Source of the DNA: OCS116 cluster bacterium AG-430-B22
GTDB lineage: Bacteria > Pseudomonadota > Alphaproteobacteria > MED-G09
Length of the DNA: 64,000 bases
Assembly (NCBI GenBank): GCA_003209955.1
Contig: QCOD01000008.1
Location: forward strand, 508 to 64,507
Reading direction: 5' to 3'
Part shown: positions 25,995-52,806 of the stretch, in pieces
How the letters are laid out: every line of letters begins with the position of its first letter
How positions within the stretch are numbered: position 1 is the stretch's first letter
The notes under the pieces: model-generated
The model's input: only the letters and a program-made list of their open reading frames with translations
The model's database searches: none
What the model was told of the DNA's origin: nothing
Program-made: the position numbers and the translations under genes

Positions 25995-27596
<1,602 letters not shown>

Positions 27597-35390: not shown

Positions 35391-36753
35391 ATTCTTTAAT
35401 GAATCCAAATATTTCTTTCGTATTGGCTTTCCAATGCTTGGTTCTCAATTATCATTTATGATTATGTCAGCTACGGATACAATAGTTGCTGGAAGAGCCG
35501 GAGCTGACCAACTCGCAGGTCTTGTAATAGCCAATTCCTTTACTTATCCAATTTTCATGTTTATGGCGGGGATAATTTTTTCTGTCATTCCAATTGTAGC
35601 GCAACTTAATGGTGCAAATAAAGATCTAGAAATAGGTCAAAAAATAAGAGAAGTCTTTTGGTTGGCTGCTTTACTTGGGCTTCTTTTAGTTATTATTTTC
35701 TATTTTGGCAGCCAATTACTGACCTTTTTACCTATTGATAAAACAATTACTTCAATATCTATTTCTTATCTCAAAGCAATTTCCATAGGTATGTTTTTCT
35801 ATATATTGTATAGATTGTTAAGTTCATATAGCGAGGGTTTAACTCTTACAATTCCAGTTTTCATAGTTGTCTTCATGGGTGCATTAATAAATATCCCGCT
35901 AGATATAATATTTGTATATGGATATTTCGGATTACCAGAGATGGGAGGTGTTGGTTGTGGATATGCTACAACAATAGTTTCAACACTAATGTTTGCTGCA
36001 ATGCTTGGCATTGTTTTGTTTTCCAAATCCTATAAGAAAAATAAATTATTCAGCAGATTTGATGGACCATCTTTGAAAACTTCCATGGAGGTATTCAAGC
36101 TTGGAACCCCCATTGGTTTTGGAATATTTGTTGAATTAAGCATGTATTCAGGGGCTGCCATAATTCTAGCACCGCTTGGGGAAAATGTTGTCTCGGGTCA
36201 TGCTGTTGCACTCAATATTGCAAGTATTGTTTTCATGTTACCGCTGGCTATAGGTCTTGCCGCATCAACCAGAGTCGGTAATCTGCTTGGAGAAAAGAGG
36301 TATATTGATGCACGATACTCATCCAAGGTTTCTGTATACCTATGTTTAATAGGTGCCCTATTTAATATGACACTCCTAGTCACACTGGGTGACAAACTTA
36401 TATCACTTTATACAACCGATCTTCTGGTTTTTTCCGTTGCAAGTCATTTAATTGTTTTTGCCGCCATTTTCCAAATTCCCGATGGCATTGGTATGGGAAG
36501 TCTTGGGGCATTGAGAGGATATAAAGATACTTTCATGACAATGGTTTTCATCATTATTGCCTATTGGGTATTTGCTATCCCTTTTGGGTACTATCTTACC
36601 TATTACGGCATAAACCAACCCATGGGAGAAAGCGGAATGTGGATCAGCATGATTGTCGGTTTGACAATATTTGCAACTCTTATTTCAAGAAGATTAAATA
36701 AAATCTCAGGACTTCATGCTATGATCAGAAAAGAGAAGGTTCCTCAATTTTGA
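35383..36753 (+). CDS. MATE-family efflux transporter
   Basis: It has 12 TM segments and the N-terminus RIGFPMLGSQLSFMIMSATDTIVAGR, typical of NorM-like MATE pumps. The start overlaps the phnE stop (ATGAATAA). Confidence 0.88.
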   Translation: MNKFFNESKYFFRIGFPMLGSQLSFMIMSATDTIVAGRAGADQLAGLVIANSFTYPIFMFMAGIIFSVIPIVAQLNGANKDLEIGQKIREVFWLAALLGLLLVIIFYFGSQLLTFLPIDKTITSISISYLKAISIGMFFYILYRLLSSYSEGLTLTIPVFIVVFMGALINIPLDIIFVYGYFGLPEMGGVGCGYATTIVSTLMFAAMLGIVLFSKSYKKNKLFSRFDGPSLKTSMEVFKLGTPIGFGIFVELSMYSGAAIILAPLGENVVSGHAVALNIASIVFMLPLAIGLAASTRVGNLLGEKRYIDARYSSKVSVYLCLIGALFNMTLLVTLGDKLISLYTTDLLVFSVASHLIVFAAIFQIPDGIGMGSLGALRGYKDTFMTMVFIIIAYWVFAIPFGYYLTYYGINQPMGESGMWISMIVGLTIFATLISRRLNKISGLHAMIRKEKVPQF

Positions 36754-36775
36754 AATTATTCATTATTTCATAAAC

Positions 36776-37699
36776 CTATACGGGGAAAAGCCATTTATTG
36801 AATTTATTGTCTTTTCCTTCAGTGACTCTCAGAAATCGGTTTTTCAGAATCATCGTTGTTTTTCCTGCTTCACCATTTCCAACAGGCTTTCCATCTAGAC
36901 TGTTGACTGGATAGACAAGATGACTAGATGATGTGATGAAAACCTCCCTTGCTTCTTCGAGCTCTCTTCGAGGAATGCGTCCAATGTTCATTTCAATACC
37001 TTCATCTTCAGCTATCTCGATAATACTCATTCGGGTAATGCCGTGCAAAACTTCGTCCTCGTGAGCCGTCCTGAGGACTCCACCGCGATTAACTATAAAT
37101 ACATTCGATGTTGGTGCCTCAGTTATATAGTCCTCACTATCAGTAAGAATGATTTCATCGTATCCATTTTTTCTTGCTTTCCATTTGGCCATCATTGGAG
37201 AGGTATAATTAGCAGCTATCTTTATCTGCGGTTCAATGATGTCCTGTCTTCTCTGATGCCGCTCTTTCTCAATCCACACACTTAACTGCTTGGAGCTATG
37301 AAATGGCTGAGAATTCTTTTCGATAATATCCTTCTGAGGATCATAAGCAGCAATAGCAACTTTGGTAAAAGGGTCCTGGGGCACTACGTCAATTTCTATG
37401 GACGCAATATAAACACTGATTTTAATGAATTTACTTCCAGGATTTTCTTTAACCGTATCAAAAACTGCATCAATTAATTCATTCTCCATATAGTCAATGG
37501 GAATTCCGGCCATAAGGCATGATCTGAGAAGTCTCTTGATATGTTTATCAACCCTAAAAATAAATGTTCCATTTTCATTTTCGAAAATAGGAATAAAACC
37601 GAAAATCAAGGAACCCCTTTGATGGGAGTGCGACAGAATATGAACTGAAGCGTCATTCCAATCAACAAACTCTCCATCTATCCAAATTTTTCTTTTCAT
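36776..37699 (-). CDS. Class IV (branched-chain / D-amino-acid) aminotransferase family protein
   Basis: It has the fold-type IV pattern: WIDGEFV.W.DA.VH, the catalytic-Lys context IKIAANY, NVFIV and HGITR. Confidence 0.8.
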   Translation of the reverse strand: MKRKIWIDGEFVDWNDASVHILSHSHQRGSLIFGFIPIFENENGTFIFRVDKHIKRLLRSCLMAGIPIDYMENELIDAVFDTVKENPGSKFIKISVYIASIEIDVVPQDPFTKVAIAAYDPQKDIIEKNSQPFHSSKQLSVWIEKERHQRRQDIIEPQIKIAANYTSPMMAKWKARKNGYDEIILTDSEDYITEAPTSNVFIVNRGGVLRTAHEDEVLHGITRMSIIEIAEDEGIEMNIGRIPRRELEEAREVFITSSSHLVYPVNSLDGKPVGNGEAGKTTMILKNRFLRVTEGKDNKFNKWLFPV

Positions 37700-37747
37700 A
37701 TTATTTAACGAATCACCTTTAAATTTTTATGATAACCTAAAATTGCT

Positions 37748-38491
37748 ATGTACCCTATTCTGATAAACATATGGATGACTATTGGTATTATTACCTTCAT
37801 CATTTTACTTATAATAAGTGCCCCCTATGGCAGACACTCAAGATCAGGCTGGGGATTAACTATACCCAAAAGACTTGGATGGATAGTAATGGAAAGCCCA
37901 GCATTATATCTTCTCTGGATATATTATTTTCTTTATGACGGATTTAGTAATCCTGTTCTTATTTTCTTTTTGATGATTTGGTCAATACATTATTTCAATA
38001 GAAGCTTTATATGGCCAATGAGAATAAAAAAAGATGGAACAATGCCCGTTTTAGTTGCCTTAATGGCCTTTTTGTTTAATGCCGTTAATACATTTTTACA
38101 TGGTTATTGGTTTTTTCTTTTGGATATTAATTACGATATATCATGGTTTTCTGAGCCAGTTTTCATAATTGGTTTTTTGATATTTCTTATAGGTGCTTTC
38201 ATTAATATTCATTCAGACAATATTTTAATGCGGTTAGCAAAAAATTCAGAGCATGGATACAAAATTCCACAAGAAGGATTGTATAAATATGTATCTAGTC
38301 CAAATTATTTGGGGGAAATTATAGAATGGCTCGGATGGGCCATTCTCACTTGGAGCGTATCTGGATTAGTATTCTTTTTCTGGACAATATTTAATTTACT
38401 TCCAAGAGCTATAAGCCATCATAAATGGTATAAAGAAAAATTTGAGGATTACCCAAAAGAGAGAAAAATAATAATTCCAAAAATCCTTTAA
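37748..38491 (+). CDS. 3-oxo-5-alpha-steroid 4-dehydrogenase (steroid/polyprenol 5-alpha-reductase) family membrane protein
   Basis: APYGRH near the N-terminus, YKIPQEGLYKYVSSPNYLGEIIEWLGWA and HHKWYKEKFEDYPKERKIIIP are close to the eukaryotic SRD5A family signature. Confidence 0.8.
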   Translation: MYPILINIWMTIGIITFIILLIISAPYGRHSRSGWGLTIPKRLGWIVMESPALYLLWIYYFLYDGFSNPVLIFFLMIWSIHYFNRSFIWPMRIKKDGTMPVLVALMAFLFNAVNTFLHGYWFFLLDINYDISWFSEPVFIIGFLIFLIGAFINIHSDNILMRLAKNSEHGYKIPQEGLYKYVSSPNYLGEIIEWLGWAILTWSVSGLVFFFWTIFNLLPRAISHHKWYKEKFEDYPKERKIIIPKIL

Positions 38492-39285
38492 GGCCTCTTT
38501 CTCATAATTAGTTTGTAATATAAATTTGTTAACCATTTCGGAGTTAACCACATAAGAAAAGCCAGGAATTTATTTATTCCCCCATTAATATATAAATCTT
38601 TACCCTTCATTGTCTCGTCAAAAGCTTGTTTGGCTACGGTTTTTGAGTTCATCCACATAAAACTTGGTATAGAACTTTTGAATTCGCCCATTTGATCGTG
38701 AAATTCTGTATGAGTAAAACCTGGGCAAACAGCACAACAATAAATATTATTATCTTTATATTCTTTATGAATACCCTCTGAAAATTTAATTACCATTGAT
38801 TTAACGGCAGTATACATGCCCCCAGAGTTTGATGCTGGAGCAAATCCTGCAAGTGAGGCAATATTAATAATTCTTCCAAAACCATTACTTATCATATTTT
38901 GTATAAATAACTGGGTTAAAGATACAACTGATGTTGATAAAACATTAATAAACTTTATGTGGTCTTCATATGAAATCTTGTGAAAGCTATCTAAAGTTCC
39001 ATAACCTGCATTATTAACTAAAAAATCAGGCATAAGATCATTTCTTTTACATTCATCATAAATTCTCTCATATTCAGGTATCTGACTTAAATCTGCTGCA
39101 ATAACCATTATTTTTATTGAAAACTTATCCTGTATATCTTCCTTTATCTTAATAAGGTTATCTTCACGCCTTGCTAAAAGGATCAGATTAATGCCCTTTT
39201 CAGCCATAATATATGCAATATCTTTACCTATCCCAGATGAAGCTCCTGTAATAAGAGCATTTTTTCCAATAAAATTATCTGCCAT
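38488..39285 (-). CDS. SDR-family oxidoreductase with hydrophobic C-terminal tail
   Basis: TGASSGIGK, NNAG and YTAVK (YxxxK) are present. It starts 2 nt after the P450 stop. Confidence 0.85.
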   Translation of the reverse strand: MADNFIGKNALITGASSGIGKDIAYIMAEKGINLILLARREDNLIKIKEDIQDKFSIKIMVIAADLSQIPEYERIYDECKRNDLMPDFLVNNAGYGTLDSFHKISYEDHIKFINVLSTSVVSLTQLFIQNMISNGFGRIINIASLAGFAPASNSGGMYTAVKSMVIKFSEGIHKEYKDNNIYCCAVCPGFTHTEFHDQMGEFKSSIPSFMWMNSKTVAKQAFDETMKGKDLYINGGINKFLAFLMWLTPKWLTNLYYKLIMRKRP

Positions 39286-39287
39286 AT

Positions 39288-40559
39288 CTAAGCTTTCTCA
39301 AAAGTTAAATATAATTTATTCAGACCCCGTAAAGCAAAATGTGATCGATGAAGAAAATCATTTTTATTTTCAGCAAGATTAATATTAGTTAATCTTTCTA
39401 GAAGTATTTGAAATGCTAATCTCATTTCTTGCCTTGCCAAAGGGGCGCCAATACAATGATGATGAGAGGTTCCATAAGCAAGATGTTTGCCTGGGTTTTT
39501 TCTATCCAAAATCATGTCCATAGGGCATTCAAATTGCTCTTCATCTCTATTGGCTGATCCAAAACGCATATCAATTATTGAGCCCTCTGGTATTTCAACC
39601 CCTGATAACAAAACATCTTTTCTAACTCTTCTAAAAAGACTCTGCACAGGTGTTTCTAGTCTAATTATTTCCTCTACGAAATTTTTATATTTTGCTTTTC
39701 CAGAGATAAGGTCGTCCATCTTGTCTCTTTTTTGCATCAACATCAACATTCCACTACCTAAGGAATCAGTAGTTGTCTCATTACCACCAATGTTTAAGTC
39801 ACTTACAATTGAGAGAAGTTCTTCAGTTTCTAATTTCTTTCCATCTTCATCAATATAATTAACAAGATCAGAAATTATATCATCTTTTGGATTTAATCTT
39901 TTTTCTTCAAATGTTTTAACCATATAATGTTGAAATTCTACTAACCTCTCAGCTACAGAGATTTCTTCTTCTTCGCTAAGCATTTGACTTAAACCTGCAG
40001 AAGTATCTTGCGACCAGGATTTAAGTTTCGGAAGATCTTTTTTAGGAAAACCTAACCTATCTTGAATAACATTCATTGGTAAAGGTATGCAAAATTGGGA
40101 AACAAACTCGACCTCCCCATCATCTATAAAGGAATCAATTAAATCATTAATTAAATTCACAATATAGGGTTCCATATTTTTTACTCTTTTTGCAGTAAAA
40201 GATGGGTTTGCTGCCTTTCTAAATTTAGTATGATATGGAGGCTCTGCACCAAAACAAGGTATCTGCTGCCATCCCTTTTCTCGAAAAACCCTTCCTACAC
40301 TATCTCCGTGTTTCCAATAACCCTTTTTTTTATGTTTTGAATCTTTTTCCCAATAGGCTGCTATATCGCGTGAAAAGTAATCGTAGTCCGTTAATACTCT
40401 TTTTAAATCATCATATTTAGTGACAACATAAAAACCCGTATCTTTACTATGATATACTGGGGCCTCTTCTCTATAAACTTTATAGGCTTCATAGGGGCTT
40501 TCAATAACATCGGGGTCTAAAAGATTATAATTTTCAGGTGATTTTATTTTTTTATTCAT
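39288..40559 (-). CDS. Cytochrome P450
   Basis: It has the heme-thiolate loop YGTSHHHCIGAPLA (FxxGxxxCxG type), an ExxR (ETPVQSLFRR) and I-helix GGNETT. The start was set to the ATG at 40559 (MNKKIK) rather than the upstream TTG. Confidence 0.92.
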   Translation of the reverse strand: MNKKIKSPENYNLLDPDVIESPYEAYKVYREEAPVYHSKDTGFYVVTKYDDLKRVLTDYDYFSRDIAAYWEKDSKHKKKGYWKHGDSVGRVFREKGWQQIPCFGAEPPYHTKFRKAANPSFTAKRVKNMEPYIVNLINDLIDSFIDDGEVEFVSQFCIPLPMNVIQDRLGFPKKDLPKLKSWSQDTSAGLSQMLSEEEEISVAERLVEFQHYMVKTFEEKRLNPKDDIISDLVNYIDEDGKKLETEELLSIVSDLNIGGNETTTDSLGSGMLMLMQKRDKMDDLISGKAKYKNFVEEIIRLETPVQSLFRRVRKDVLLSGVEIPEGSIIDMRFGSANRDEEQFECPMDMILDRKNPGKHLAYGTSHHHCIGAPLARQEMRLAFQILLERLTNINLAENKNDFLHRSHFALRGLNKLYLTFEKA

Positions 40560-40582
40560 TTTAAAACTTTCCAAATACAAAA

Positions 40583-41410
40583 CTATAGGATTAGAGGTGG
40601 ATTACCAAGTGTAAATTCAACATGATTTTGGATTCTTAAGGTTTCTTTATCAATATCGCCATTAATATCCAATGGATCAATTTGGCGACCGAAAGTAATT
40701 GTATACTTAAATTCCTCTTTATTTACCAGTTCGCTAAATAGACTAATGTTCTTTAATTCTTCATTAAAAATATCTAAAAAATAATAAAAAAGTGAATTAT
40801 GCCCATCCATATGAAAAGGTATAATTGGCGCATTATATTTCTTTGACAACTTAACAATAGTGTTTAACCAAGGTCTTTCAAACAACTTGAAGCCTTTTCT
40901 TTTAGAAAGGCGAGATGATGGAAAAACTAATAAACACTTACCTTCATTAAGAGTCTCCTTTGTTCTTTTCAGAATTTCTTTGCTTTTACCGATATTTTTA
41001 TTGTCATCATTCCAATCGACAGGAATAATAATATCTTCAAAACCTTTAGATAACTTAATCATGTCAATATTTGCATAAAGCGTATAATCAGGGCGTCTAT
41101 CTTTCATGACTTCAAACATTACTATTCCATCAGTAAGACCAGTTGGATGATTTCCCGCTAATATGATTGGGCCATGTTCTGGTACCAATTCAATATTTCT
41201 TATATCTAGATTAAATTTCAGCAGATTTGTTAAATAAGTAAAACATTCAAAACCAGATATATTAGAAATATCGTCGGTAATGTTTTTTGCTGTTTGATAT
41301 TTAAATATTTTAAAAATTGTAGGCTTTATAACCGACCACAAAAACTTATTAGACATCAATTTAGGACATCTTTCTTCTATAATTTCATCAATTGGATGAA
41401 TTCTATGCAT
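40583..41410 (-). CDS. PlsC-like (lysophospholipid) acyltransferase family protein
   Basis: AGNHPTGLTDG is an acyltransferase His-Asp box variant, followed by a VFPSSRLS block. The ATG overlaps the rodA stop (ATGCATAG). The substrate is unknown. Confidence 0.65.
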   Translation of the reverse strand: MHRIHPIDEIIEERCPKLMSNKFLWSVIKPTIFKIFKYQTAKNITDDISNISGFECFTYLTNLLKFNLDIRNIELVPEHGPIILAGNHPTGLTDGIVMFEVMKDRRPDYTLYANIDMIKLSKGFEDIIIPVDWNDDNKNIGKSKEILKRTKETLNEGKCLLVFPSSRLSKRKGFKLFERPWLNTIVKLSKKYNAPIIPFHMDGHNSLFYYFLDIFNEELKNISLFSELVNKEEFKYTITFGRQIDPLDINGDIDKETLRIQNHVEFTLGNPPLIL

Positions 41411-42545
41411 CTAATATACTCTCAATCTTTATATCCCTTTGCCTTCTTGCATTAAGAACAAACCCCATCGCTGCACAAAGAGAGATTATTGCTGAACCAC
41501 CGTATGAAAGCATAGGTATTGGAACACCAACTATTGGAATTAATCCAGTTATCATCGCGCAATTAATAAAGAAATATAAAAAAATCAATACAGATATTGA
41601 TCCACATGCAACAGAACTAAATCGACTTCTAGCTACGATTGAAGTATGCATAGATATTATAATAAGGTAGGAAAAAATTGAGAAAATAAATATTCCCCCT
41701 ACTAATCCTGTTTCTTCAAGAAGCACTGCTAACATAAAATCATTATGTTTTTCGGGAAGAAAATTAAGCTGGCTCTGTGTGCCTGACATAAAACCTTTTC
41801 CAATTAAACCTCCAGAACCAATAGCTATTTTTGATTGAATTATATGATAACCTGATCCGAAAGGATCCTTATCAGGATCAAGAAAGACTTCTAATCTTTT
41901 CATTTGGTAAGGCTTTAAGTTAGTAATAATAAGCGGGATAGTCACAAAAACAAATGATGAGCCCAATACAACCCATTTCAAATAAAGCCCAGAAAAGAAA
42001 ACAGTTGAAAACCCTGCTAGAATTAGTAAAACAGCTGTCCCCAAATCAGGTTGATTTAAAATTAAAAAAGAGGGAACCAAAATTAGTATTATTGGTAATA
42101 CATTGTATCTCAATTGCCTAGATTTGCTTTCTCCAAAAAAACTATAATAGGAAGCTAATGTTAAAATTAGTATAAATTTTAAAAACTCTGATGGCTGAAA
42201 ACTTGTTCCACCTAAATTTATCCATCTAGACACTGTTGAAGACTCAAATACATATAGCCAAGCCAGCATAGCCAGTATCACAAAGTACATTGGAAAAGAA
42301 ATAACTCTCAGAATTCGAAAACTAATAAAGGAAAAAAATATAAAAAATATGAATCCAACTATTAAACGAAGAAAATGATTCATTACTGTCTGATTAAATT
42401 CTCCACCAGAAATGGAAAATAGCATCAATGATCCGGTAGAACCTAGCATAAGTAAACAAAGTGGTATGCCATAATTAATACCTCTAAATTTATCAAAGTA
42501 GAGAGTTCTTTTATGTAAAATGTTCTTTCTTTGTTTTCTATACAT
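41403..42545 (-). CDS. rodA: Peptidoglycan glycosyltransferase RodA (SEDS family)
   Basis: This FtsW/RodA/SpoVE-family protein has 10 TM segments, QPSEF.K and LPE.HNDF motifs. Confidence 0.92.
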   Translation of the reverse strand: MYRKQRKNILHKRTLYFDKFRGINYGIPLCLLMLGSTGSLMLFSISGGEFNQTVMNHFLRLIVGFIFFIFFSFISFRILRVISFPMYFVILAMLAWLYVFESSTVSRWINLGGTSFQPSEFLKFILILTLASYYSFFGESKSRQLRYNVLPIILILVPSFLILNQPDLGTAVLLILAGFSTVFFSGLYLKWVVLGSSFVFVTIPLIITNLKPYQMKRLEVFLDPDKDPFGSGYHIIQSKIAIGSGGLIGKGFMSGTQSQLNFLPEKHNDFMLAVLLEETGLVGGIFIFSIFSYLIIISMHTSIVARSRFSSVACGSISVLIFLYFFINCAMITGLIPIVGVPIPMLSYGGSAIISLCAAMGFVLNARRQRDIKIESILDA

Positions 42546-42547
42546 TT

Positions 42548-44332
42548 TTATGCTTTTGATCCCTGGGTTTTAATTTTTTGACATGCTAATAAAATATCCC
42601 TTCCTAGAGGCGCAGCTTTTTGGCTGCCTGAACCTCCATGCTCTATAACAATTGAAACAGAATATTTTGGTTGTATTGTTGGAGCATAACCAACAAAAAG
42701 AGCATGGTCTCTTTCATTCCAAACTTTTGAAATAATTATTTCTTCTTTTCTTTCTTCTTCAGTTATTTCTTTTACTTGTGAAGTTCCAGTCTTACCTGCC
42801 ATTCTCCAGTTATCCGCTTCAATTCTGCTAGAATAAGCATTACTGCCTTTTTCATTAACAGCTATATCCAATAAATCTCTAAGCAAATCTAAATTAGAAA
42901 AATTAAATCCAGCAGGCCTTATCTTATTTTTTTTATTTAAATTTGGTGACTTTATTATTTTAGGCTCAATGTAGAACCCTTTGTTTGCAATCATTGATAT
43001 CATTACATTTAATTGCAAAGGAGTTGCAGAAATATAACCCTGACCGATACCAGCAACTAGTGTATCCCCTAAATTCCAATTATTATTAATATTATTTTCT
43101 ATCCAATTTTTAGTTGGCACTAGCCCATTTCTCTCTTTGTCACTAATTAAATCGAAATTTCTACCAAATCCTAATCGAAGAGCCATATTGGCAATCTTTT
43201 CAATACCAAGTCTTCTAGCAAGGTCATAAAAATAGACATCGCAAGATTCTTTTATTGCCTTTCTAAGATCGACCTCTTCATGGCCCTTATCCTTCCAACA
43301 ATGAAAATTTCTTTTTCCATATTTTGTTTTTCCGCTACAAAAAACCTTATCATCTGGGTTAAGCAACCCATCCTCTAGGCCAGCTAAAGCAGTAACGATT
43401 TTAAATGTTGAGCCTGGAGGATATTCACCATTAATAGCTTTGTTCAAAAATGGTTTTCTTTCATCTTCTGATATTTTATTCCACTCATCGTAACTAAAGC
43501 CATCAATAAATTTATTGCTATCAAAACTTGGTGTTGAACACATAGCCAAAATTTCACCATTTTGGATATTCATTACTGTTGCCGCACCTACATTATTGCC
43601 CATTATTTTATGAACGGCGTTTTGAAGATCTTGATCAATTGTTAAAACTACATCTTGACCATTTATTGCTTTATTTTCCTCCAAAATACGTATGCTTTTT
43701 TCTTCAGAATTTACTTCTGTTTTCACATAACCTAAATGACCTGATAGAATATGATCGAATTTTAACTCTAAACCAGAAAGTCCAATAGTTTTTAAACTCT
43801 CTGAATTTGAATCATTTATGAAGCCAGTGTATCCAATAAGATGAGAAAAGCTTTTCGAATTGATATAAGATCTTTTGGAGTTATCTTCGATTAAAAAACT
43901 CTCTAAATCATCGCTTAAAAAATTTAAAGCAGATATTTCATCGATAGTTAAATTTTCTTTTATTTCTATTTTTTTTAATTTTCTATCAAATACCCTCTTA
44001 TTAATCTTCTGAATTTGATCATTATCTAAACTTAATTTATTAATAATTTTTTTTATAAGCGCTTGATCTGGTAAAGCAGACCCTGAGGAATAAGTTAGTT
44101 TAAAATTGGAAGAATTTAATGCTAATTCATTACCATTTCGATCATAAAAGATACCTCTTTTAGGAAATAATGGAGTTATTCTTATGCGATTCTTATCAGA
44201 TAATAGTAAATATTTATCTTGCTCACTGACTTGAAGTTTCCAAAGCCTTGATAAAAGAAATGATGAAAGAATAATCATTCCTCCACCAACAAAAAATACA
44301 CGACGATTTATGTCGTTGTTTTTTTCATACAT
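42548..44332 (-). CDS. mrdA: Penicillin-binding protein 2 (elongasome transpeptidase)
   Basis: It has an N-terminal TM plus PBP dimer domain, and transpeptidase motifs STFK (PGSTFK), SCD-type SxN and KTGT. Confidence 0.93.
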   Translation of the reverse strand: MYEKNNDINRRVFFVGGGMIILSSFLLSRLWKLQVSEQDKYLLLSDKNRIRITPLFPKRGIFYDRNGNELALNSSNFKLTYSSGSALPDQALIKKIINKLSLDNDQIQKINKRVFDRKLKKIEIKENLTIDEISALNFLSDDLESFLIEDNSKRSYINSKSFSHLIGYTGFINDSNSESLKTIGLSGLELKFDHILSGHLGYVKTEVNSEEKSIRILEENKAINGQDVVLTIDQDLQNAVHKIMGNNVGAATVMNIQNGEILAMCSTPSFDSNKFIDGFSYDEWNKISEDERKPFLNKAINGEYPPGSTFKIVTALAGLEDGLLNPDDKVFCSGKTKYGKRNFHCWKDKGHEEVDLRKAIKESCDVYFYDLARRLGIEKIANMALRLGFGRNFDLISDKERNGLVPTKNWIENNINNNWNLGDTLVAGIGQGYISATPLQLNVMISMIANKGFYIEPKIIKSPNLNKKNKIRPAGFNFSNLDLLRDLLDIAVNEKGSNAYSSRIEADNWRMAGKTGTSQVKEITEEERKEEIIISKVWNERDHALFVGYAPTIQPKYSVSIVIEHGGSGSQKAAPLGRDILLACQKIKTQGSKA

Positions 44333-44355
44333 TTTTAATTTTTATACTGATTCCT

Positions 44356-45402
44356 CTAATGCCTACCATAAGGCGTGCTTAATGTATCTCTCATTGTCTT
44401 TATATTTTTCATCACTTTACCTGACCCTAAAGCTACACTTGATAAAGGTTCTTCAGCATATTTTACTTTCAGGCCTGTTGCGCGCTCAATAACTACATCC
44501 ATGTTGTCTAATAATGAGCCTCCTCCAGTTAAAAGGATGCCATTCTCATAAATATCACCAGTTAATTCGGGTGGAGCTGATTCAAATGCTTCCTTAATAG
44601 TCTCTGTAATTTCAAATAATGCCTCGGCTAAACTTTCGGAAATATGTCTCTCAGTAATTTCTTTCTCTACTGGGACGCCTTCTGTTATCTCTTTACCTTT
44701 TATTGTCATCTTTCTTCCATCACCATGTTTGGGAATAATCCCTGAACCAATTTGTATTTTAAGTTGTTCTGCTGTAATCTCGCCAATGTGGATATTTTCA
44801 TTTCTTCTTAAATTAGAGATGATTGATTTATCAAATTCATTTCCACCAACTCTAATAGACTTAGAAAAAACTATTCCCCCAAGAGATATTATTGCGATTT
44901 CAGTAGTTCCCCCACCTATATCAATTATCATTGAGCCTTTTGCTTCATTAATTGGAAGATCGGATCCTATAGCTGCAGCCATAGGTTCCTCGATTAAAAA
45001 AACTTTTCTAGCTCCAGTAGCTAAACCAGAGTCCAAAATAGCTTTTCTTTCAGCGGGAGTAGAGCTTGCGGGAACACATATCATTAATCTAGGGCTAAAA
45101 AGGTTTTTATTTAATAAGGATTTACTTATAAAATATTTTAACATTTCTTCAGCAGCTAAATAATCGGCAATTATTCCCTCACGCATTGGTTTTATGGTTT
45201 CAATGTTTTCTGGGGTTCTGCCATGCATTTCTTTTGCTTTTGACCCAATGGCAATTATACCCATATTTAAATCTGCTTTATCCACAGCCAAAATTGACGG
45301 TTCATTTAAAACGATTCCATTATCATGGTGATGGATAAGTGTATTGACTGTACCTAAATCTATAGCCAAATCAGAACTAAGAAAATTCAAATATTTTTTC
45401 AA
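44356..45402 (-). CDS. mreB: Rod shape-determining actin homologue MreB
   Basis: DLAIDLGTVNT, IDIGGGTTE and LTGGGSLL are actin-fold phosphate/adenosine motifs. Confidence 0.96.
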   Translation of the reverse strand: MKKYLNFLSSDLAIDLGTVNTLIHHHDNGIVLNEPSILAVDKADLNMGIIAIGSKAKEMHGRTPENIETIKPMREGIIADYLAAEEMLKYFISKSLLNKNLFSPRLMICVPASSTPAERKAILDSGLATGARKVFLIEEPMAAAIGSDLPINEAKGSMIIDIGGGTTEIAIISLGGIVFSKSIRVGGNEFDKSIISNLRRNENIHIGEITAEQLKIQIGSGIIPKHGDGRKMTIKGKEITEGVPVEKEITERHISESLAEALFEITETIKEAFESAPPELTGDIYENGILLTGGGSLLDNMDVVIERATGLKVKYAEEPLSSVALGSGKVMKNIKTMRDTLSTPYGRH

Positions 45403-45415
45403 AAAATTCTCCTAA

Positions 45416-46963
45416 TTAATTAGCTATCTCCTCAGGAATACTTTTCTCTCTTTTAACCATAAGACGATTTAAAGCACTTATATACGCCCGAGCAGAAGCT
45501 ACTAAAGTATCAGTATCTGCACCTCTTCCTATAACTGTCTTACCTGATTCGTGTAATCTTACACTAACTTCTGCTTGAGCATCAGTTCCTTCTGTAACAG
45601 CATGAACCTGATATAACTGTAAACTAGCAGTATGTGGAATAAGAGTTCTTATTGAATTAAATAAGGCATCTACCGGTCCATCGCCCTCAGATTTATTTTG
45701 CTTTACTTCTCCATCTATCTCTAATGAAAGATCTGCAAATTGTGGGCCTTCAGTACCAGCATAAATAGATAAAGATACTAGCTTTATAACATCTAAGCCT
45801 TTAGAAAATTCATCATCAATTAGAGCAACAATATCATCGTCAAAGACTTCTTTTTTCTTATCAGCTAAATCCTTAAACCTATAAAATGCATCATTTAATT
45901 GATTGTCAGCTAGCACATAACCAAGTTCTTTGGCCTTTTCTTTAAAAGCATGTCTTCCAGAATGCTTACCCATCACTAAAGTGGATTCATTTAAACCAAT
46001 ACTTTCTGGGGTCATGATTTCATATGTTTCATTGTTCTTGAGCATTCCATCTTGATGAATACCAGATTCATGTGCAAAAGCATTTTTTCCAACAATGGCT
46101 TTATTAAATTGAACTGGAAAAGATGTAACTGAAGATACAAGTTTTGAAGCACGAGTGAAAAGCTTTGTTTCAACTCCTGAGTCATAATCTAATATATCAT
46201 TTCTTACTTTCATAGACATGACAATTTCTTCAAGAGCAGCATTACCAGCTCTCTCACCAATTCCATTCATAGTACACTCAATTTGTCTTGCGCCCGCTCT
46301 GACACCAGACAAAGAATTAGCAACTGCTAAACCTAAATCATTATGGCAATGTGTTGAGAAAATAACTTTATCTGAATCTGGTATATTTTTTATTAAAGAG
46401 TCAATTATTTCATAATATTCATCTGGGGTTGTATAACCTACTGTATCAGGAATATTAATTGTGGTAGCTCCAGATGATATAGCCATATCAACACATTTAA
46501 ATAAAAAATCTCTATCTGTTCTTGTGGCATCTTCTGCAGACCATTGAACATCTTCTACTAAATTTCTTGCTCTTGATACAGAGAAATTAATAGCATCAAG
46601 AACTTCTTGCTCATTCATTTGTAATTTGTACTGCATGTGAACAGGGCTGGTTGAAATAAAAGTATGGATTCTAGGGTTTTTTGCATACTTTAATGCTTCA
46701 GCAGCTCTATCAATATCCTTTTGTCCTGCCCTAGATAACCCACAAACTTGAACATTTTTTACTATTCTAGAGACTTCTTTAACTGACTCAAAATCACCAT
46801 TTGATGCAATCGGAAATCCGGCTTCAATAATGTCTACGCCCATTTCATCAAAAATTTCAGCAATTTGTATTTTTTCCTCAAGAGACATTGAAGCTCCTGG
46901 AGATTGCTCACCATCTCTTAAGGTTGTATCAAAAATTTTAATATAATTATCTTTACTATTCAT
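45416..46963 (-). CDS. leuA: 2-isopropylmalate synthase
   Basis: IFDTTLRDGEQSPG and HCHNDLGLAVANS are present, with a C-terminal LeuA allosteric domain. Confidence 0.95.
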   Translation of the reverse strand: MNSKDNYIKIFDTTLRDGEQSPGASMSLEEKIQIAEIFDEMGVDIIEAGFPIASNGDFESVKEVSRIVKNVQVCGLSRAGQKDIDRAAEALKYAKNPRIHTFISTSPVHMQYKLQMNEQEVLDAINFSVSRARNLVEDVQWSAEDATRTDRDFLFKCVDMAISSGATTINIPDTVGYTTPDEYYEIIDSLIKNIPDSDKVIFSTHCHNDLGLAVANSLSGVRAGARQIECTMNGIGERAGNAALEEIVMSMKVRNDILDYDSGVETKLFTRASKLVSSVTSFPVQFNKAIVGKNAFAHESGIHQDGMLKNNETYEIMTPESIGLNESTLVMGKHSGRHAFKEKAKELGYVLADNQLNDAFYRFKDLADKKKEVFDDDIVALIDDEFSKGLDVIKLVSLSIYAGTEGPQFADLSLEIDGEVKQNKSEGDGPVDALFNSIRTLIPHTASLQLYQVHAVTEGTDAQAEVSVRLHESGKTVIGRGADTDTLVASARAYISALNRLMVKREKSIPEEIAN

Positions 46964-46997
46964 TTTTTACTCCATTTGTATTGAAAGTGTTTTTTAA

Positions 46998-47031
46998 CCT
47001 CTGAGAACAAAAATATATTGAACCTCAGAGG
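46998..47031 (-). repeat. Perfect 8-bp inverted repeat (CCTCTGAG-N18-CTCAGAGG), a potential RNA hairpin in the leuA 5' region
   Basis: Read directly. On the minus-strand transcript, the arm transcribed first (47031-47024) contains the stop codon of the small Leu-rich ORF. No U-run follows. Confidence 0.75.
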
Positions 47032-47129
47032 CAAATCAGGAGTAATGCTAGTAAACCTAGAACAACCAAAAAGATATTGTTGAAAGAATTGATGCTTTCA
47101 AAAAAATTATTATTTTCTAATTGTTCCAT
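47025..47129 (-). CDS. Candidate 34-aa Leu-rich small ORF (leader peptide or small membrane protein) upstream of leuA
   Basis: It translates to MEQLENNNFFESINSFNNIFLVVLGLLALLLICL. AAGGT lies ~8 nt upstream of the ATG. It sits in the largest intergenic gap (220 nt) of a long co-directional block. It is below the ORF-track size cutoff and unverified. Confidence 0.3.
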   Translation of the reverse strand: MEQLENNNFFESINSFNNIFLVVLGLLALLLICL

Positions 47130-47183
47130 TTCATTACCTTTAAAAAGATAAATGCATGAAATTTTTGATTTATTCAAGAGAAA

Positions 47184-48741
<1,558 letters not shown>

Positions 48742-48742
48742 A

Positions 48743-50500
48743 TTAAATTAATACCTTCCCTTCATCAGAAACCTCTGGGTTATCGTCGCTTTCTCCTAAT
48801 AACATTTCATTATGCGCTGCTCCTGAAGGAATCATCGGATAGCAATTCTCATCTTGGTCAACCACACAATCAAAAATAACTGGACCTTGATAATCGACCA
48901 TTTCTTGTATTTTTTGATCCAGTTCGTCAGGTTTTATTGCTCTAAGACCAAGACAGCCATATGCCTCAGCAAGTTTTACAAAATCAGGTAAAGAATCTGT
49001 ATATGAATGAGAATATCTTCCTCCATGCAATAATTCTTGCCATTGCCTTACCATTCCCATGTACTGATTATTTAGTATAAATACCTTAATAGGAAGTTTG
49101 TGCTGAACAGCTGTCGATAGCTCTTGAATATTCATCAATATTGATGCTTCGCCAGCAATATCAATAACTAAACTGCTTGGGTGGGCCACTTGAACACCAA
49201 TTGCAGCAGGTAACCCATAACCCATTGTTCCAAGTCCCCCCGAGGTCATCCATCTATTAGGTTCATCAAATTTATAATATTGAGCAGCCCACATTTGATG
49301 CTGCCCTACTTCAGTAGTTATATATGAATCATTATCTTTAGTTAGCTCATATAATCTTTCTACCGCATATTGAGGCTTTATCACATCAGTGGAATTTTTA
49401 TAATCTAGAGATTTTTTATTTCTCCATTTTTCAATTTGTTCCATCCATGAGTCAATATTTACCCTTAGGCCTTTCGATTTCCATTTTAATAAAATACCTT
49501 CAATTGCGTGGGCGCAATCACCAACTACAGAAACATCAACTGGTACAGTCTTATTCATTGATGAAGGATCAATGTCAATGTGTATTTTTTTTGAATTAGG
49601 TGAAAAAGCATCTAATCTTCCAGTAACCCTATCATCAAACCTTGCGCCAATATTTATTAAAAGATCACATTCATTCATCGCTAAATTAGCTTCATAGGTT
49701 CCATGCATTCCAAGCATTCCAAGCCAATTAGTCTCATTTGATGGAAATGCACCTAAACCCATTAAAGTGCTGGTAATGGGAAAACCAGTTAATAACACAA
49801 GCTCTTTTAATAAATGACTTGCTTCTGAACCAGAGTTTATGACTCCTCCACCAGTATAAAAAATAGGTTTTTTAGCATTTGCCATCAATTCTATAGCTTC
49901 ATCGATAAAACGCATATCGGGCTTAATCTGAGGATTATAGTTTTCTGATTTTATTTCACTTGGTGGAAAATATTTTGCATCAGCAAATTGAATATCTTTT
50001 GGAATATCTACAACAACTGGACCAGGTCTTCCTGAAGTAGCCACATGAAAAGCTTCATGTAAAATACGACATAAGTCATCAGGATCTTTTACAAGCCAAT
50101 TATGTTTTGTGCATGGTCTCGTTATTCCAACAGTATCTGCTTCTTGAAAAGCATCAGTTCCAATTAAATGAGTTGGTACTTGGCCTGAAATGCAAACTAG
50201 AGGAATTGAATCCATCATTGCATCAGTTAATCCAGTAACAGCATTGGTAGCTCCAGGTCCAGATGTTACAACTAAAACTCCAGGTTTTCCTGTTGATCTA
50301 GCATATCCTTCAGCTGCATGTGCAGCGCCTTGTTCATGCCTTACTAAAATATGTCTAGGTGAGTCATTGCTTTTGAATATCTCATCATATAATGGCAAAA
50401 CAGCACCACCAGGATATCCAAAAATATGATCAACTGAATGATCTTTTAAAACCTTCAGTATCACCTCTGCGCCAGTTAATTTAGTCATACTTTTTTCCAT
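48743..50500 (-). CDS. ilvI: Acetolactate synthase large (catalytic) subunit
   Basis: This ThDP enzyme has GYPGGAVLP, the [14 protein letters not shown] ThDP-binding motif and [12 protein letters not shown]. Confidence 0.95.
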
Positions 50501-50548
50501 TTAATGATATGCGAAAATTAAATTCTAAATACATAAAGGTCAAGAGTT

Positions 50549-51460
50549 TTATAATTTTTTAATAAAATAATCTACTATTTTATCTGATTCTTGCGTAGAA
50601 AAGCTTTTCCATGAAATCATCTGATGTTTTAACCATGTTATTTGTCTTTTTGCATATTGATGAGTTCTAAATTTAATCAAATCTTTAACTTCATCAATAT
50701 TAATTTTTTTTTGTAAATATTCTTTAATTTCACTAACGCCAATTGCATTTAAAATAGGCGCTTTATCATCATAATTCTTATCTATTAAAGACTGAACTTC
50801 TTCTATTACCCCTAATTGAAACATATGATCGCATCTATCATCACAGTTTTGGTAAAGCTTCTCTCTGTCGGTGTTAAGTTTAATTTTTATAAAATTATCT
50901 TCAAAAACTTTTATTCTCTCCAATTTCCAATAATCAGATATCTTTTTACCAGTACCTCTAAATACTTCTAAAGCTCTTAAAATTCTTTGTTGATCATTTC
51001 TATCTATTGATTCATATGCTTGAATATCTATAACTTTAAGCTCTCCATATAGTTTTTCTAAACCTCTTATATTTAATTCTTTTTTTAACCTTCCTCTTAT
51101 TTCGTAATTAATATCAGGAATTGGCGATAATCCATCAGTCATAGCTTTAAAATACAAACCTGTTCCGCCAACGAGAATAGGTTTTGAATTTTTTTTTAAA
51201 ATCTTTTGAGTTATTTTCTTTGCTTCATTAATCCATTTTCCTACTGACCATAATTCATCACCATTTACAAAACCATAAAGGTGGTGATTAGGGTCATTTT
51301 CTTTCGGCTTAGGTCGAGCAGTAAGTATTTCTAAATCTTTATAAATTTGTATTGAATCAGCATTAATTATTTCACCATCTATTTTTTTAGCCAATGTATT
51401 TGCAAGTGATGATTTTCCCGATGCTGTAGGTCCAGCTATAAGAATAATTTTGTTTTCCAT
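50549..51460 (-). CDS. miaA: tRNA dimethylallyltransferase
   Basis: P-loop GPTASGKS, DSIQIYK.L.I.TA.P and LVGGTGLY are present. The start was set to the ATG at 51460 (MENKIILIAG) rather than the upstream TTG. Confidence 0.92.
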   Translation of the reverse strand: MENKIILIAGPTASGKSSLANTLAKKIDGEIINADSIQIYKDLEILTARPKPKENDPNHHLYGFVNGDELWSVGKWINEAKKITQKILKKNSKPILVGGTGLYFKAMTDGLSPIPDINYEIRGRLKKELNIRGLEKLYGELKVIDIQAYESIDRNDQQRILRALEVFRGTGKKISDYWKLERIKVFEDNFIKIKLNTDREKLYQNCDDRCDHMFQLGVIEEVQSLIDKNYDDKAPILNAIGVSEIKEYLQKKINIDEVKDLIKFRTHQYAKRQITWLKHQMISWKSFSTQESDKIVDYFIKKL

Positions 51461-51567
51461 GCTATTAAATAATAAAATAAGTTTAGAAAAAATAAATACC
51501 AAAATTTAACAAACTATTTTATCTAAATATGTTATCTAGGTATCTATTAATATACAAAAGAGAAATA

Positions 51568-52806
51568 ATGTCATTAATCCTACCCTTTAAAGCTCTAAGA
51601 CCATCAATAGATAAGGCTAGTGATGTAATTGCGCCACCTTACGATGTTTTAGATTCTGGTGAAGCAAGAGAAATGGCAAAAGACAAACCATATAGTTTTT
51701 TGCATATCTCAAAACCAGAAATTGATCTTGAGGAAGAAATAAATTTTAATGATGAAAGCGTTTATAAAAAAGGGGCAGAAAATTTAAAAAATTTTATCGA
51801 GGAGGGTATTCTTTATCAAGATAAGAAGGAATGTTTATATCTTTATGAAATAACCCTTGATAACAAGACTCAGACAGGATTTGGTTGTATTGCTTCAATT
51901 GAAGCTTATAACAAAAATATAATAAAAAAACATGAATTTACAACTCCAATAAAAGAAGATGATCGTGTTTTAAATATCAAAGAGCTTGAAGCTCAAACAG
52001 GTCCTGTTTTACTGGCTTACAAACAGAACTCTTTTATGAAAAAAGTATTAAAGGAAAATAAAAAAGGTGATCCAATTTATAGTGTAATAGGTCCAGACTC
52101 TTCAGAACATAAAATATGGCCAATAGAAGATGAACTAGAGATAAATAAAATTGTTTCTGAAGTGAATTCCATGGGTACATTATATATAGCTGATGGACAT
52201 CATAGATCTGCTGCTGCATCAAGAGTTAGTCAAGAAATAAATGAATCTGGAACTAATAATTCAAAAAGTCACAATTTTTTTCTATCAGTTGCTTTCCCTC
52301 ACTCTGAAATGAATATCTTAGATTACAATAGAATTATTTCAGGATTAAATAATTATACTTCAGATGAACTTTTAAATGAGATTAATAAAAATTTTATAAT
52401 TAATAATATTTCTAGTTCATGCAAGCCTGTTCAAAATAAAGAATTTGGAATGTTTTTGGATAACGCTTGGTACAAACTTAATTTAAGAGAAAGTATCGCT
52501 ATAAAGGATGATCCAGTCAATTCATTAGATGTGTCTATTTTACACAATTTAATTATTTCTCCATTACTTGGAATTGAAGATGAGAGAAGAGATAAAAGGA
52601 TAAATTTTGTAGGCGGTGCGAGAGGGGTAGAAGAATTAGAAAAAAGAGTAAAACATGGTAAATACGATATAGCTTTTTCTTTATTCCCAACCCCTATTGA
52701 AGCACTTTTTAAGGTTGCAGATGCAGATAAGGTAATGCCTCCTAAATCTACATGGTTTGAACCAAAGTTACTTGATGGATTACTATCTCATAAGATAAAT
52801 GATTAA
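51568..52806 (+). CDS. DUF1015 family protein
   Basis: MSLILPFKALRP....VIAPPYDVL and YIADGHHR are DUF1015 hallmarks. The internal ATG at 51568 matches homologous N-termini better than 51529. Confidence 0.8.
   Translation: MSLILPFKALRPSIDKASDVIAPPYDVLDSGEAREMAKDKPYSFLHISKPEIDLEEEINFNDESVYKKGAENLKNFIEEGILYQDKKECLYLYEITLDNKTQTGFGCIASIEAYNKNIIKKHEFTTPIKEDDRVLNIKELEAQTGPVLLAYKQNSFMKKVLKENKKGDPIYSVIGPDSSEHKIWPIEDELEINKIVSEVNSMGTLYIADGHHRSAAASRVSQEINESGTNNSKSHNFFLSVAFPHSEMNILDYNRIISGLNNYTSDELLNEINKNFIINNISSSCKPVQNKEFGMFLDNAWYKLNLRESIAIKDDPVNSLDVSILHNLIISPLLGIEDERRDKRINFVGGARGVEELEKRVKHGKYDIAFSLFPTPIEALFKVADADKVMPPKSTWFEPKLLDGLLSHKIND

Follow-up and report, generated by a model that had tools for sequence, protein, structure and literature searches.

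A conserved acyltransferase beside a variable oxidative slot downstream of rodA in a streamlined OCS116-clade alphaproteobacterium

Genes behind rodA and their junctions

The window analyzed here is a stretch of 64,000 nucleotides from OCS116 cluster bacterium AG-430-B22 (assembly GCA_003209955.1, contig QCOD01000008.1, positions 508 to 64,507). Our subject is a group of three genes in it, encoding an acyltransferase, a cytochrome P450, and a short-chain dehydrogenase/reductase (SDR), which directly follow rodA, the last gene of a mreB-mrdA-rodA block. A sequence-only reading of the window had taken this trio both for the distal part of the cell-elongation operon and for a module that oxygenates acyl lipids. 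As first posed, such a finding would have joined the oxygenation of membrane lipids to the elongation of peptidoglycan; the comparison of genomes presented below argues otherwise. The acyltransferase behind rodA is designated AT1 throughout, and the genera compared are labeled g1 (that of the window's genome), g2, and g3. From rodA onwards, the genes are the following:

41403-42545, reverse strand: rodA, SEDS peptidoglycan polymerase, last gene of mreB-mrdA-rodA (TIGR02210, 339.7 bits, cut-off 336.7; PF01098)
40583-41410, reverse strand: AT1, assigned as an HX5D-type lyso-lipid O-acyltransferase, 275 amino acids (PF01553, PF19576)
41129-41149, reverse strand: predicted catalytic HX5D motif of AT1, H88-P-T-G-L-T-D94, conserved in homologues
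39288-40559, reverse strand: class I cytochrome P450, 423 amino acids, accessory gene of a variable slot (PF00067, 80.5 bits, cut-off 22.8)
38488-39285, reverse strand: classical SDR, 265 amino acids, with a hydrophobic C-terminal tail (PF00106, 144.8 bits)
37748-38491, forward strand: membrane reductase of the SRD5A/TECR family (3-oxo-5-alpha-steroid 4-dehydrogenase-like; PF02544, 175 bits)

The arrangement described by the sequence-only reading was borne out at nucleotide level. The ATG of AT1 overlaps the rodA stop in ATGCATAG (41410 to 41403), an 8-nt overlap found in the list of open reading frames (ORFs) and by direct reading, and this ATG at 41410 is the sole usable one upstream of the invariant residues H5, P6, and D8. 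The P450 gene follows after 23 nt, as had been stated, when its start is taken as the ATG at 40559; the ORF call reaches a TTG at 40580, while the ATG is favored by the orthologues and by the fused remnant in genome G002 (see below). The SDR gene follows 2 nt after the P450 gene (stop codon at 39288-39290, SDR ATG at 39285), and its 3' end overlaps that of the convergent PF02544 gene by 4 nt. Pfam and NCBIfam matches also confirmed the long co-directional run miaA-ilvIHC-leuA-mreB-mrdA-rodA-AT1-P450-SDR, and the three enzyme classes (PlsC-like acyltransferase, P450, SDR) all proved correct by domain matches and motifs. No terminator-like site was found at the rodA/AT1, AT1/P450, or P450/SDR junctions. 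A promoter scan returned 61 promoter-like sites against 72 ± 10 expected from shuffled sequence and was thus uninformative, and Rfam gave zero family matches in 36000-52000.

Such tight packing is the norm in this organism. The host is a streamlined marine alphaproteobacterium of the PS1/OCS116 clade, not one of the Pelagibacterales, with a genome of about 1.3 Mb that is about 94% coding (the assembly holds 1.24 Mb and is 80% complete). Across this 1.24-Mb assembly, with gene starts taken from longest-ORF calls, which inflate overlaps, the median gap between same-strand neighbors is 9 nt, 69% of gaps are at most 25 nt, and 26% of pairs overlap; co-directional runs of at least 10 genes hold one fifth of all genes in the whole assembly. 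The spacing of rodA, AT1, P450, and SDR is no tighter than expected by chance for this genome. The lesson is a general one: where gaps have a median of 9 nt, start/stop overlaps and long co-directional runs are no evidence of shared function.

Gene content of the slot varies among close relatives

For comparison, the locus was annotated in 23+ genomes of the PS1 family (about 25 related genomes, three genera). All share a constant backbone, in which miaA-ilvI-ilvH-ilvC-leuA lies upstream of AT1, and the convergent PF02544 gene and ilvE lie beyond it, followed by a MATE transporter gene in g1 and g3. The PF02544 gene marks the far boundary of the slot in every locus that extends that far. As an aside, the PF02544 reductase at 37748-38491 belongs to a eukaryote-like family. 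Between these fixed points, the following arrangements were found:

g1 (window's genome, G004, G005, G008): rodA-AT1-P450-SDR
g1 (G002, G006, G010): AT1-SDR, P450 missing
g1 (G001, G003, G009): AT1-P450, SDR missing
g1 (G011): AT1-P450, then an acyl-CoA-dehydrogenase-like ORF of 418 amino acids
g3 (G013, G017): rodA-AT1-PQQ-ADH(-PQQ-ADH)-P450-SDR-NmrA-like
g2 (G012, G014, G016, G018-G023): leuA-AT1-PQQ-ADH(-PQQ-ADH-P450)-SDR-NmrA-like

Here, PQQ-ADH denotes a pyrroloquinoline quinone-dependent alcohol dehydrogenase. AT1 is the sole gene of the trio that is constant across the family: it occupies this position in about 24 of 25 genomes, wherever the locus was recovered, and is still 65-68% identical in g2. 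In g2 and g3, PQQ-ADH genes lie between AT1 and the P450 gene, with gaps of 36-104 nt after AT1, and some g2 genomes carry a SnoaL-like gene on the opposite strand. In G011, the place of the SDR is held by the acyl-CoA-dehydrogenase-like ORF, directly after the P450 gene (L044, 2046-3302; judged by eye). The proposal that the trio forms a lipid-oxygenation module is not supported by these observations, as each gene occurs without the others in close relatives and PQQ-ADH genes intervene in two of the three genera.

The P450 gene is missing from the slot in G002, G006, G010, G012, G014, G020, and G021. Slot P450s are 73-100% identical to each other and are true orthologues, whereas the other P450s of these genomes reach at most 44%. 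In G002, G006, and G010, the neighbors of the lost P450 still match the proteins of the window at 90-98% identity, and the deletions have left scars that can be read. G006 and G010 have a hybrid spacer behind the AT1 stop: at a short GAAAG repeat, the AT1-P450 spacer passes into the final bases of the P450 gene, and precisely the P450 ORF is missing. G002 bears a different scar, in which the 12 initial P450 codons (MNKKINSPENYN) run in frame into codon 6 of the SDR gene. The P450 gene was lost independently at least 2 times within g1, and the distinct scars therefore indicate that it was ancestral in the slot, has repeatedly been lost, and is dispensable. Slot genes also move between locations: an 87%-identical orthologue of the g2 slot PQQ-ADH is encoded elsewhere in the window's genome (C4:84872-86833), beside unrelated genes. 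The trio as seen in the window is a passing state of a variable slot that is decaying beside a conserved AT1.

A reduced elongation block, apparently excised in one genus

Upstream of AT1, the elongation genes and leuA are as follows:

42548-44332, reverse strand: mrdA (PBP2; TIGR03423, 590 bits)
44356-45402, reverse strand: mreB (NF010539, 440 bits)
45416-46963, reverse strand: leuA (NF002087, 838 bits)

As in the mreBCD and mrdA/pbp2-rodA operons of Caulobacter and E. coli, mreB, PBP2, and RodA are clear equivalogs in canonical order. In contrast to those operons, no mreC gene lies between mreB and mrdA (window positions 44333-44355), the block includes neither mreC nor mreD, and it is packed between leuA and AT1. 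A search that covered MreC (PF04085) and left out MreD gave matches above the cut-off in 0 of 8 PS1 genomes, compared to 4 of 4 controls of the same class.

A further difference from the Caulobacter and E. coli systems is that the entire block is gone from the locus in the sister genus g2. There, mreB was found in none of 13 genomes, several of which are 93-97% complete, compared to nearly all genomes of g1 and g3 and 16 of 16 outgroups from the class, while mrdA was missing from all 6 g2 genomes tested. At the g2 locus, leuA and AT1 are cleanly joined without a rodA in between (the search for rodA was confined to the locus); leuA directly precedes AT1 there, with gaps of 14-25 nt (L017-L019, L021, L025-L028). 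The mreB-mrdA-rodA genes thus look like a reduced module that was excised by g2. Since AT1 is kept in g2 without mreB and mrdA, it is independent of the Rod system, and the functional tie between trio and elongasome that had been proposed is not supported by a genus that retains leuA-AT1 without mreB, mrdA, or a rodA at the locus. The locus instead documents a stepwise loss of the Rod system, first of MreC, which is missing from the family, and then, in one genus, of mreB-mrdA-rodA, which were cleanly excised. As a separate observation, the loss of the Rod system in g2 suggests that cell shape has changed within the clade.

Transcripts across the junctions

Eight marine metatranscriptomes (Logan contigs, unstranded and from mixed strains) were aligned to the locus. 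RNA contigs span the rodA/AT1 junction (X2, 41290-41444 and 41325-41444), the AT1/P450 junction (X9, 40530-40710; X5, 40555-40715), and the P450/SDR junction (X1, 39136-39966; X4, 39067-40052; also X5, X9, and X12). Contigs across all three junctions make read-through plausible, and transcription from rodA probably does continue into the trio. Depth is uneven, however: in most of the 8 runs it is about 0-4 over AT1 and about 5-19 over the P450 gene, and it stays lower over AT1 although strains that lack the P450 gene should raise the depth of AT1 alone. This hints at an additional transcription start for P450-SDR, from a putative internal promoter.

The claim that AT1, P450, and SDR are distal genes of the elongation operon is supported in part. 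The missing terminators and the junction-crossing contigs agree with it; the linkage is not conserved in relatives, and the depth over AT1 is below that over the P450 gene.

AT1 as a probable stand-alone lyso-lipid acyltransferase

Two Pfam families match AT1 above their cut-offs: PF01553 (43.8 bits, cut-off 23) and PF19576 (Acyltransf_2; 30.5 bits, cut-off 27). Its motif NHPTGLTDG is strongly conserved, with H88, P89, T90, G91, D94, and G95 unchanged in all 26 homologues compared, the most distant of which is 32% identical, and an FPS block is likewise invariant over that range. The HX5D motif is the signature of the clade of lyso-lipid acyltransferases that includes SqdA, SalA, and the N-terminal part of OlsF (OlsF-N), for which BLASTP E < 1e-40 to S. 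meliloti SMc02490 has been used as the cut-off for assignment to SqdA (10.1101/2022.08.18.504050). In a review of aminolipids, PF19576 is associated with OlsF-N and GlsA (PMC11631085). A sequence search against the PDB gave no match for AT1 at E <= 0.01, so a fold search was used. The AlphaFold model (pLDDT 92.8, pTM 0.89) found PlsC of T. maritima (5KYM; E 3.8e-6, TM 0.48/0.54), glycerol-3-phosphate acyltransferases, and PatA as the top Foldseek matches. AT1 shares with SqdA, SalA, OlsF-N, and GlsA its length (about 275-307 amino acids), the HX5D motif that replaces the HX4D of PlsC, an FP-x block, the PF19576 and PF01553 matches, and the PlsC-like fold; by motif, Pfam, and fold it can be assigned to the HX5D/PF19576 clade of lyso-lipid O-acyltransferases.

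In contrast to OlsF and GlsA themselves, AT1 scores far under both NCBIfam cut-offs; these are its best NCBIfam matches, at 122.3 bits for OlsF (N-terminal half; cut-off 620) and 89.2 bits for GlsA (cut-off 260). A second difference from these systems lies in the partner enzyme. PF13444, which covers the N-acyltransferases of the OlsB, GlsB, and OlsF-C type, was found in 0 of 25 genomes of the PS1 family, compared to 11 of 16 other genomes of the same class, with the controls E. coli and B. thetaiotaomicron both registering in the search. Synthesis of ornithine or glycine lipids is therefore unlikely, and an OlsA/OlsF/GlsA-type aminolipid enzyme was rejected as an identity for AT1 on both grounds. 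Housekeeping PlsC was rejected as well, as a better PF01553 gene (83 bits) is present on C2. A GGDG[YF]CGW-type motif, as in the N-terminus of SqdB, occurs in no ORF of the 80%-complete genome; sqdBDC is also missing where SqdA is an orphan.

By homology, we infer that AT1 is a stand-alone O-acyltransferase that would depend on acyl-ACP (acyl carrier protein) and act on a mono-acylated polar lipid, with an acceptor that is probably phosphorus-free. A role like that of orphan SqdA or of SalA is the leading candidate. The genome encodes a second HX5D paralogue (C7:26164-27030, 288 amino acids, motif VANHPFGVLDG; OlsF-N 149 bits, PF19576 41 bits), which is kept in nearly all of the PS1 family, again without an OlsB-type partner. 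An abundant ocean clade thus carries two HX5D lyso-lipid acyltransferases without such a partner, and both are candidates for the synthesis of phosphorus-free lipids. This may include the scavenging of sulfoquinovosyl glycerol, a role suggested for orphan SqdA.

Outside the family, a survey of about 300 other alphaproteobacterial genomes gave AT1 orthologues in 14 (E 1e-53 to 1e-79), and thousands of metagenomic proteins are orthologues as well. Their records, for example in Hyphococcus and the Parvularculaceae, name them only "1-acyl-sn-glycerol-3-phosphate acyltransferase", "acyltransferase", or "putative hemolysin". None of the loci inspected places the orthologue next to rodA, and no conserved partner emerged in the distant genomes inspected, where the neighbors vary from BKACE (beta-keto-acid cleavage enzyme), WS/DGAT (wax-ester synthase/DGAT), and SDR genes to LamB/YcsF, an aldolase, a TonB receptor, or an Rce1-like gene. 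In two distant alphaproteobacterial genomes of 5.3 Mb (L078, 4193-8628; L079, 4678-9051), the orthologue leads a co-directional set AT-BKACE-WS/DGAT-SDR, a gene content that hints at neutral-lipid metabolism.

The P450, the SDR, and a probable oxidative cassette

The P450 carries intact motifs: GGNETT in the I-helix (258-263), EEIIR (296-300), and the loop YGTSHHHCIG with the cysteine heme ligand (362-371). Its best solved relatives are 8W6Z, TamI, PksS, CYP109-type enzymes (5L90, YjiB), CYP125, and CYP142 (E 1e-52 to 1e-40), and like class I P450s of the CYP107/109/125/142 type it is a soluble protein of about 420 amino acids with intact I-helix, EXXR, and cysteine-ligand motifs. All its NCBIfam matches lie far below the cut-off. 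The best matches outside the PS1 family among the sampled genomes are at most 33% identical, so that a CYP family is not assignable here. It differs from them as one of 6-10 lineage-specific paralogues. As in those systems, a 2Fe-2S ferredoxin and a flavoprotein reductase are available, with genes at a distance of 11 kb. This pair, which the sequence-only reading had already pointed out, is present as described, with a reductase that is a flavoprotein of the thioredoxin-reductase type:

27276-27596, reverse strand: 2Fe-2S ferredoxin (PF00111)
26246-27274, reverse strand: thioredoxin-reductase-like flavoprotein (PF07992, PF13738)

These proteins are plausible redox partners of the P450s of this genome, and may serve the slot P450 among them. 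The SDR has the motifs of its class, TGASSGIG (13-20), NNAG (91-94), S144, and Y158-x3-K162 within YTAVK; among NCBIfam models it matches mycolate reductase best, with 148 bits that fall far short of the cut-off of 380.

The window's genome encodes 6 P450s, 19 SDR-like, 5 SnoaL-like, 4 PQQ-dehydrogenase-like, and 2 NmrA-like proteins. PS1 genomes (1.0-1.4 Mb) carry 6-10 P450 paralogues each, most of them sharing 26-44% identity with the slot P450 (27-41% for those of the window's genome) and often adjoining NmrA-like, SnoaL-like, SDR, or PQQ-dehydrogenase genes. One such paralogue, on C5, has NmrA-like, SnoaL-like, and SDR genes as its neighbors. This recurrent toolkit of P450, SDR, PQQ-ADH, and NmrA-like genes fits the oxidation of a hydrophobic substrate better than a partnership with AT1. 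We regard the P450 as probably part of a dispensable oxidative cassette, and likely a catabolic one. The set of P450, PQQ-ADH, SnoaL, and NmrA genes in the clade suggests that hydrophobic or alicyclic compounds of the dissolved organic matter are oxidized. In the literature, nothing relevant was found on P450s of PS1/OCS116 or on operons of rodA with an acyltransferase, and a paper on AEGEAN-169 does not mention the genes of this locus.

Interpretation of the locus

Taken together, we consider it likely that the locus consists of unrelated genes crowded by deletion in a streamlined genome, rather than of a lipid-oxygenation pathway linked to the elongasome. Ordinary crowding is favored because relatives gain and lose each gene of the trio and the cell-shape genes independently. 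Three separate units would then lie end to end: the elongasome block, a stand-alone AT1, and the remnant of a cassette. The first would be a reduced, MreC-less mreB-mrdA-rodA. AT1, with its PlsC-like fold and H88/D94 catalytic dyad, would use acyl-ACP as the donor to acylate a polar lipid that already bears one acyl chain and is probably free of phosphorus. Lyso-ornithine and lyso-glycine lipids are unlikely acceptors, since N-acyltransferases of the OlsB/GlsB type are missing from the clade. The third unit would derive from the PQQ-ADH(-PQQ-ADH)-P450-SDR-NmrA-like cassette of the sister genera, cut in g1 to P450-SDR, P450, or SDR. In this cassette, the P450, supplied by a ferredoxin/reductase pair such as that at 26246-27596, may hydroxylate a hydrophobic substrate, after which dehydrogenases may oxidize the alcohol formed. 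Oxidation of a substrate appears to fit this chemistry better than lipid biosynthesis does.

Several points weigh against this account. Both genera with rodA keep AT1 close behind it (an overlap of 8-11 nt or a gap of 1 nt), so that a real link is possible. AT1, the SDR gene, and the SRD5A-like gene are near-constant neighbors in three genera, and in G171 and G300 an SDR gene and a WS/DGAT gene are found at a distance of three genes from the AT orthologue, so that some relation between AT and SDR is possible. The gap statistics behind the argument from crowding come from the inflated overlap counts noted above. Logan contigs carry no strand and may include DNA carry-over, and their depth is a poor measure of expression. 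A catabolic role for the P450 cassette is read from gene content.

The proposal in its original form, with AT1, P450, and SDR acting in turn to make or remodel an oxygenated acyl lipid as deliberately co-expressed distal genes of the elongasome operon, seems very unlikely to us. It draws on genes that are co-directional and overlapping or nearly so, with no terminator between them and RNA contigs across each junction, on a ferredoxin/reductase pair at hand, and on three chemistries that are compatible on paper. However, each gene of the trio is found without the others, the P450 having been lost at least 2 times and the SDR lost or replaced; g2 has AT1 and SDR but lacks mreB, mrdA, and, at the locus, rodA; PQQ-ADH genes part AT1 from the P450 in g2 and g3, with 36-104 nt after AT1; and the RNA depth of AT1 is below that of the P450, while the spacing is the norm of the genome. 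That the P450 and SDR act on the product of AT1 at all is scarcely more than a long shot, and we give equally little credence to the specific version in which they modify the acyl chains of a phosphorus-free lipid made by AT1 and are co-transcribed with the elongasome so that remodeling tracks elongation. If true, this would be a P450-based counterpart of the hydroxylation of ornithine lipids. OlsC, OlsD, and OlsE hydroxylate the acyloxyacyl ornithine lipid, and to our knowledge they are neither P450s nor SDRs. Their chemistry resembles the earlier proposal, but nothing here ties the slot P450 or the SDR to a lipid substrate.

Two narrower couplings deserve consideration. Only rodA and AT1 might belong together, with AT1 a membrane-lipid accessory of a reduced Rod system and with P450 and SDR as unrelated passengers. 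This would account for the start/stop overlap or 1-nt gap preserved in g1 and g3 and for the metatranscriptome contig across the junction, but it is unlikely: AT1 is present at 65-68% identity in all Rod-less g2 genomes, equally tight after leuA, its orthologues in other alphaproteobacteria are not near rodA in any locus inspected, and 26% of same-strand pairs in this genome overlap. Slightly more doubtful is a core lipid pathway of AT1, SDR, and the SRD5A/TECR-like reductase, combining acyl transfer with keto and enoyl reduction, which P450 and PQQ-ADH would optionally feed or whose product they would decorate. No other genes of the locus are as constant over the three genera as those of this core, apart from the flanking ones named below; the best family match of the SDR, although far below cut-off, is a mycolate (beta-keto-acyl) reductase; PF02544 includes enoyl-CoA and polyprenol reductases; and an AT orthologue lies near SDR and WS/DGAT genes in G171 and G300. 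Against this, G001, G003, and G009 lack the SDR yet keep AT1 and the SRD5A-like gene, which itself lies on the opposite strand, and the SDR of G171 and G300 is only 29-31% identical, an ordinary value for SDR paralogues. The unrelated leuA, ilvE, and MATE genes are equally constant, so that constancy at this locus reflects general synteny.

Further features of the genome and the run

The P450 genes encoded in the window's genome besides that of the slot are the following (contig and coordinates):

C3:14086-15372, P450 paralogue
C3:40902-42146, P450 paralogue
C5:85032-86276, P450 paralogue
C6:2372-3745, P450 paralogue
C6:45305-46585, P450 paralogue

For genomes as small as those of the PS1 family, this is an unusually dense oxidative toolkit. 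Within the co-directional run itself, the far largest gap is the spacer between ilvC and leuA (46964-47183, 220 nt), which measures about 210-240 nt in all relatives.

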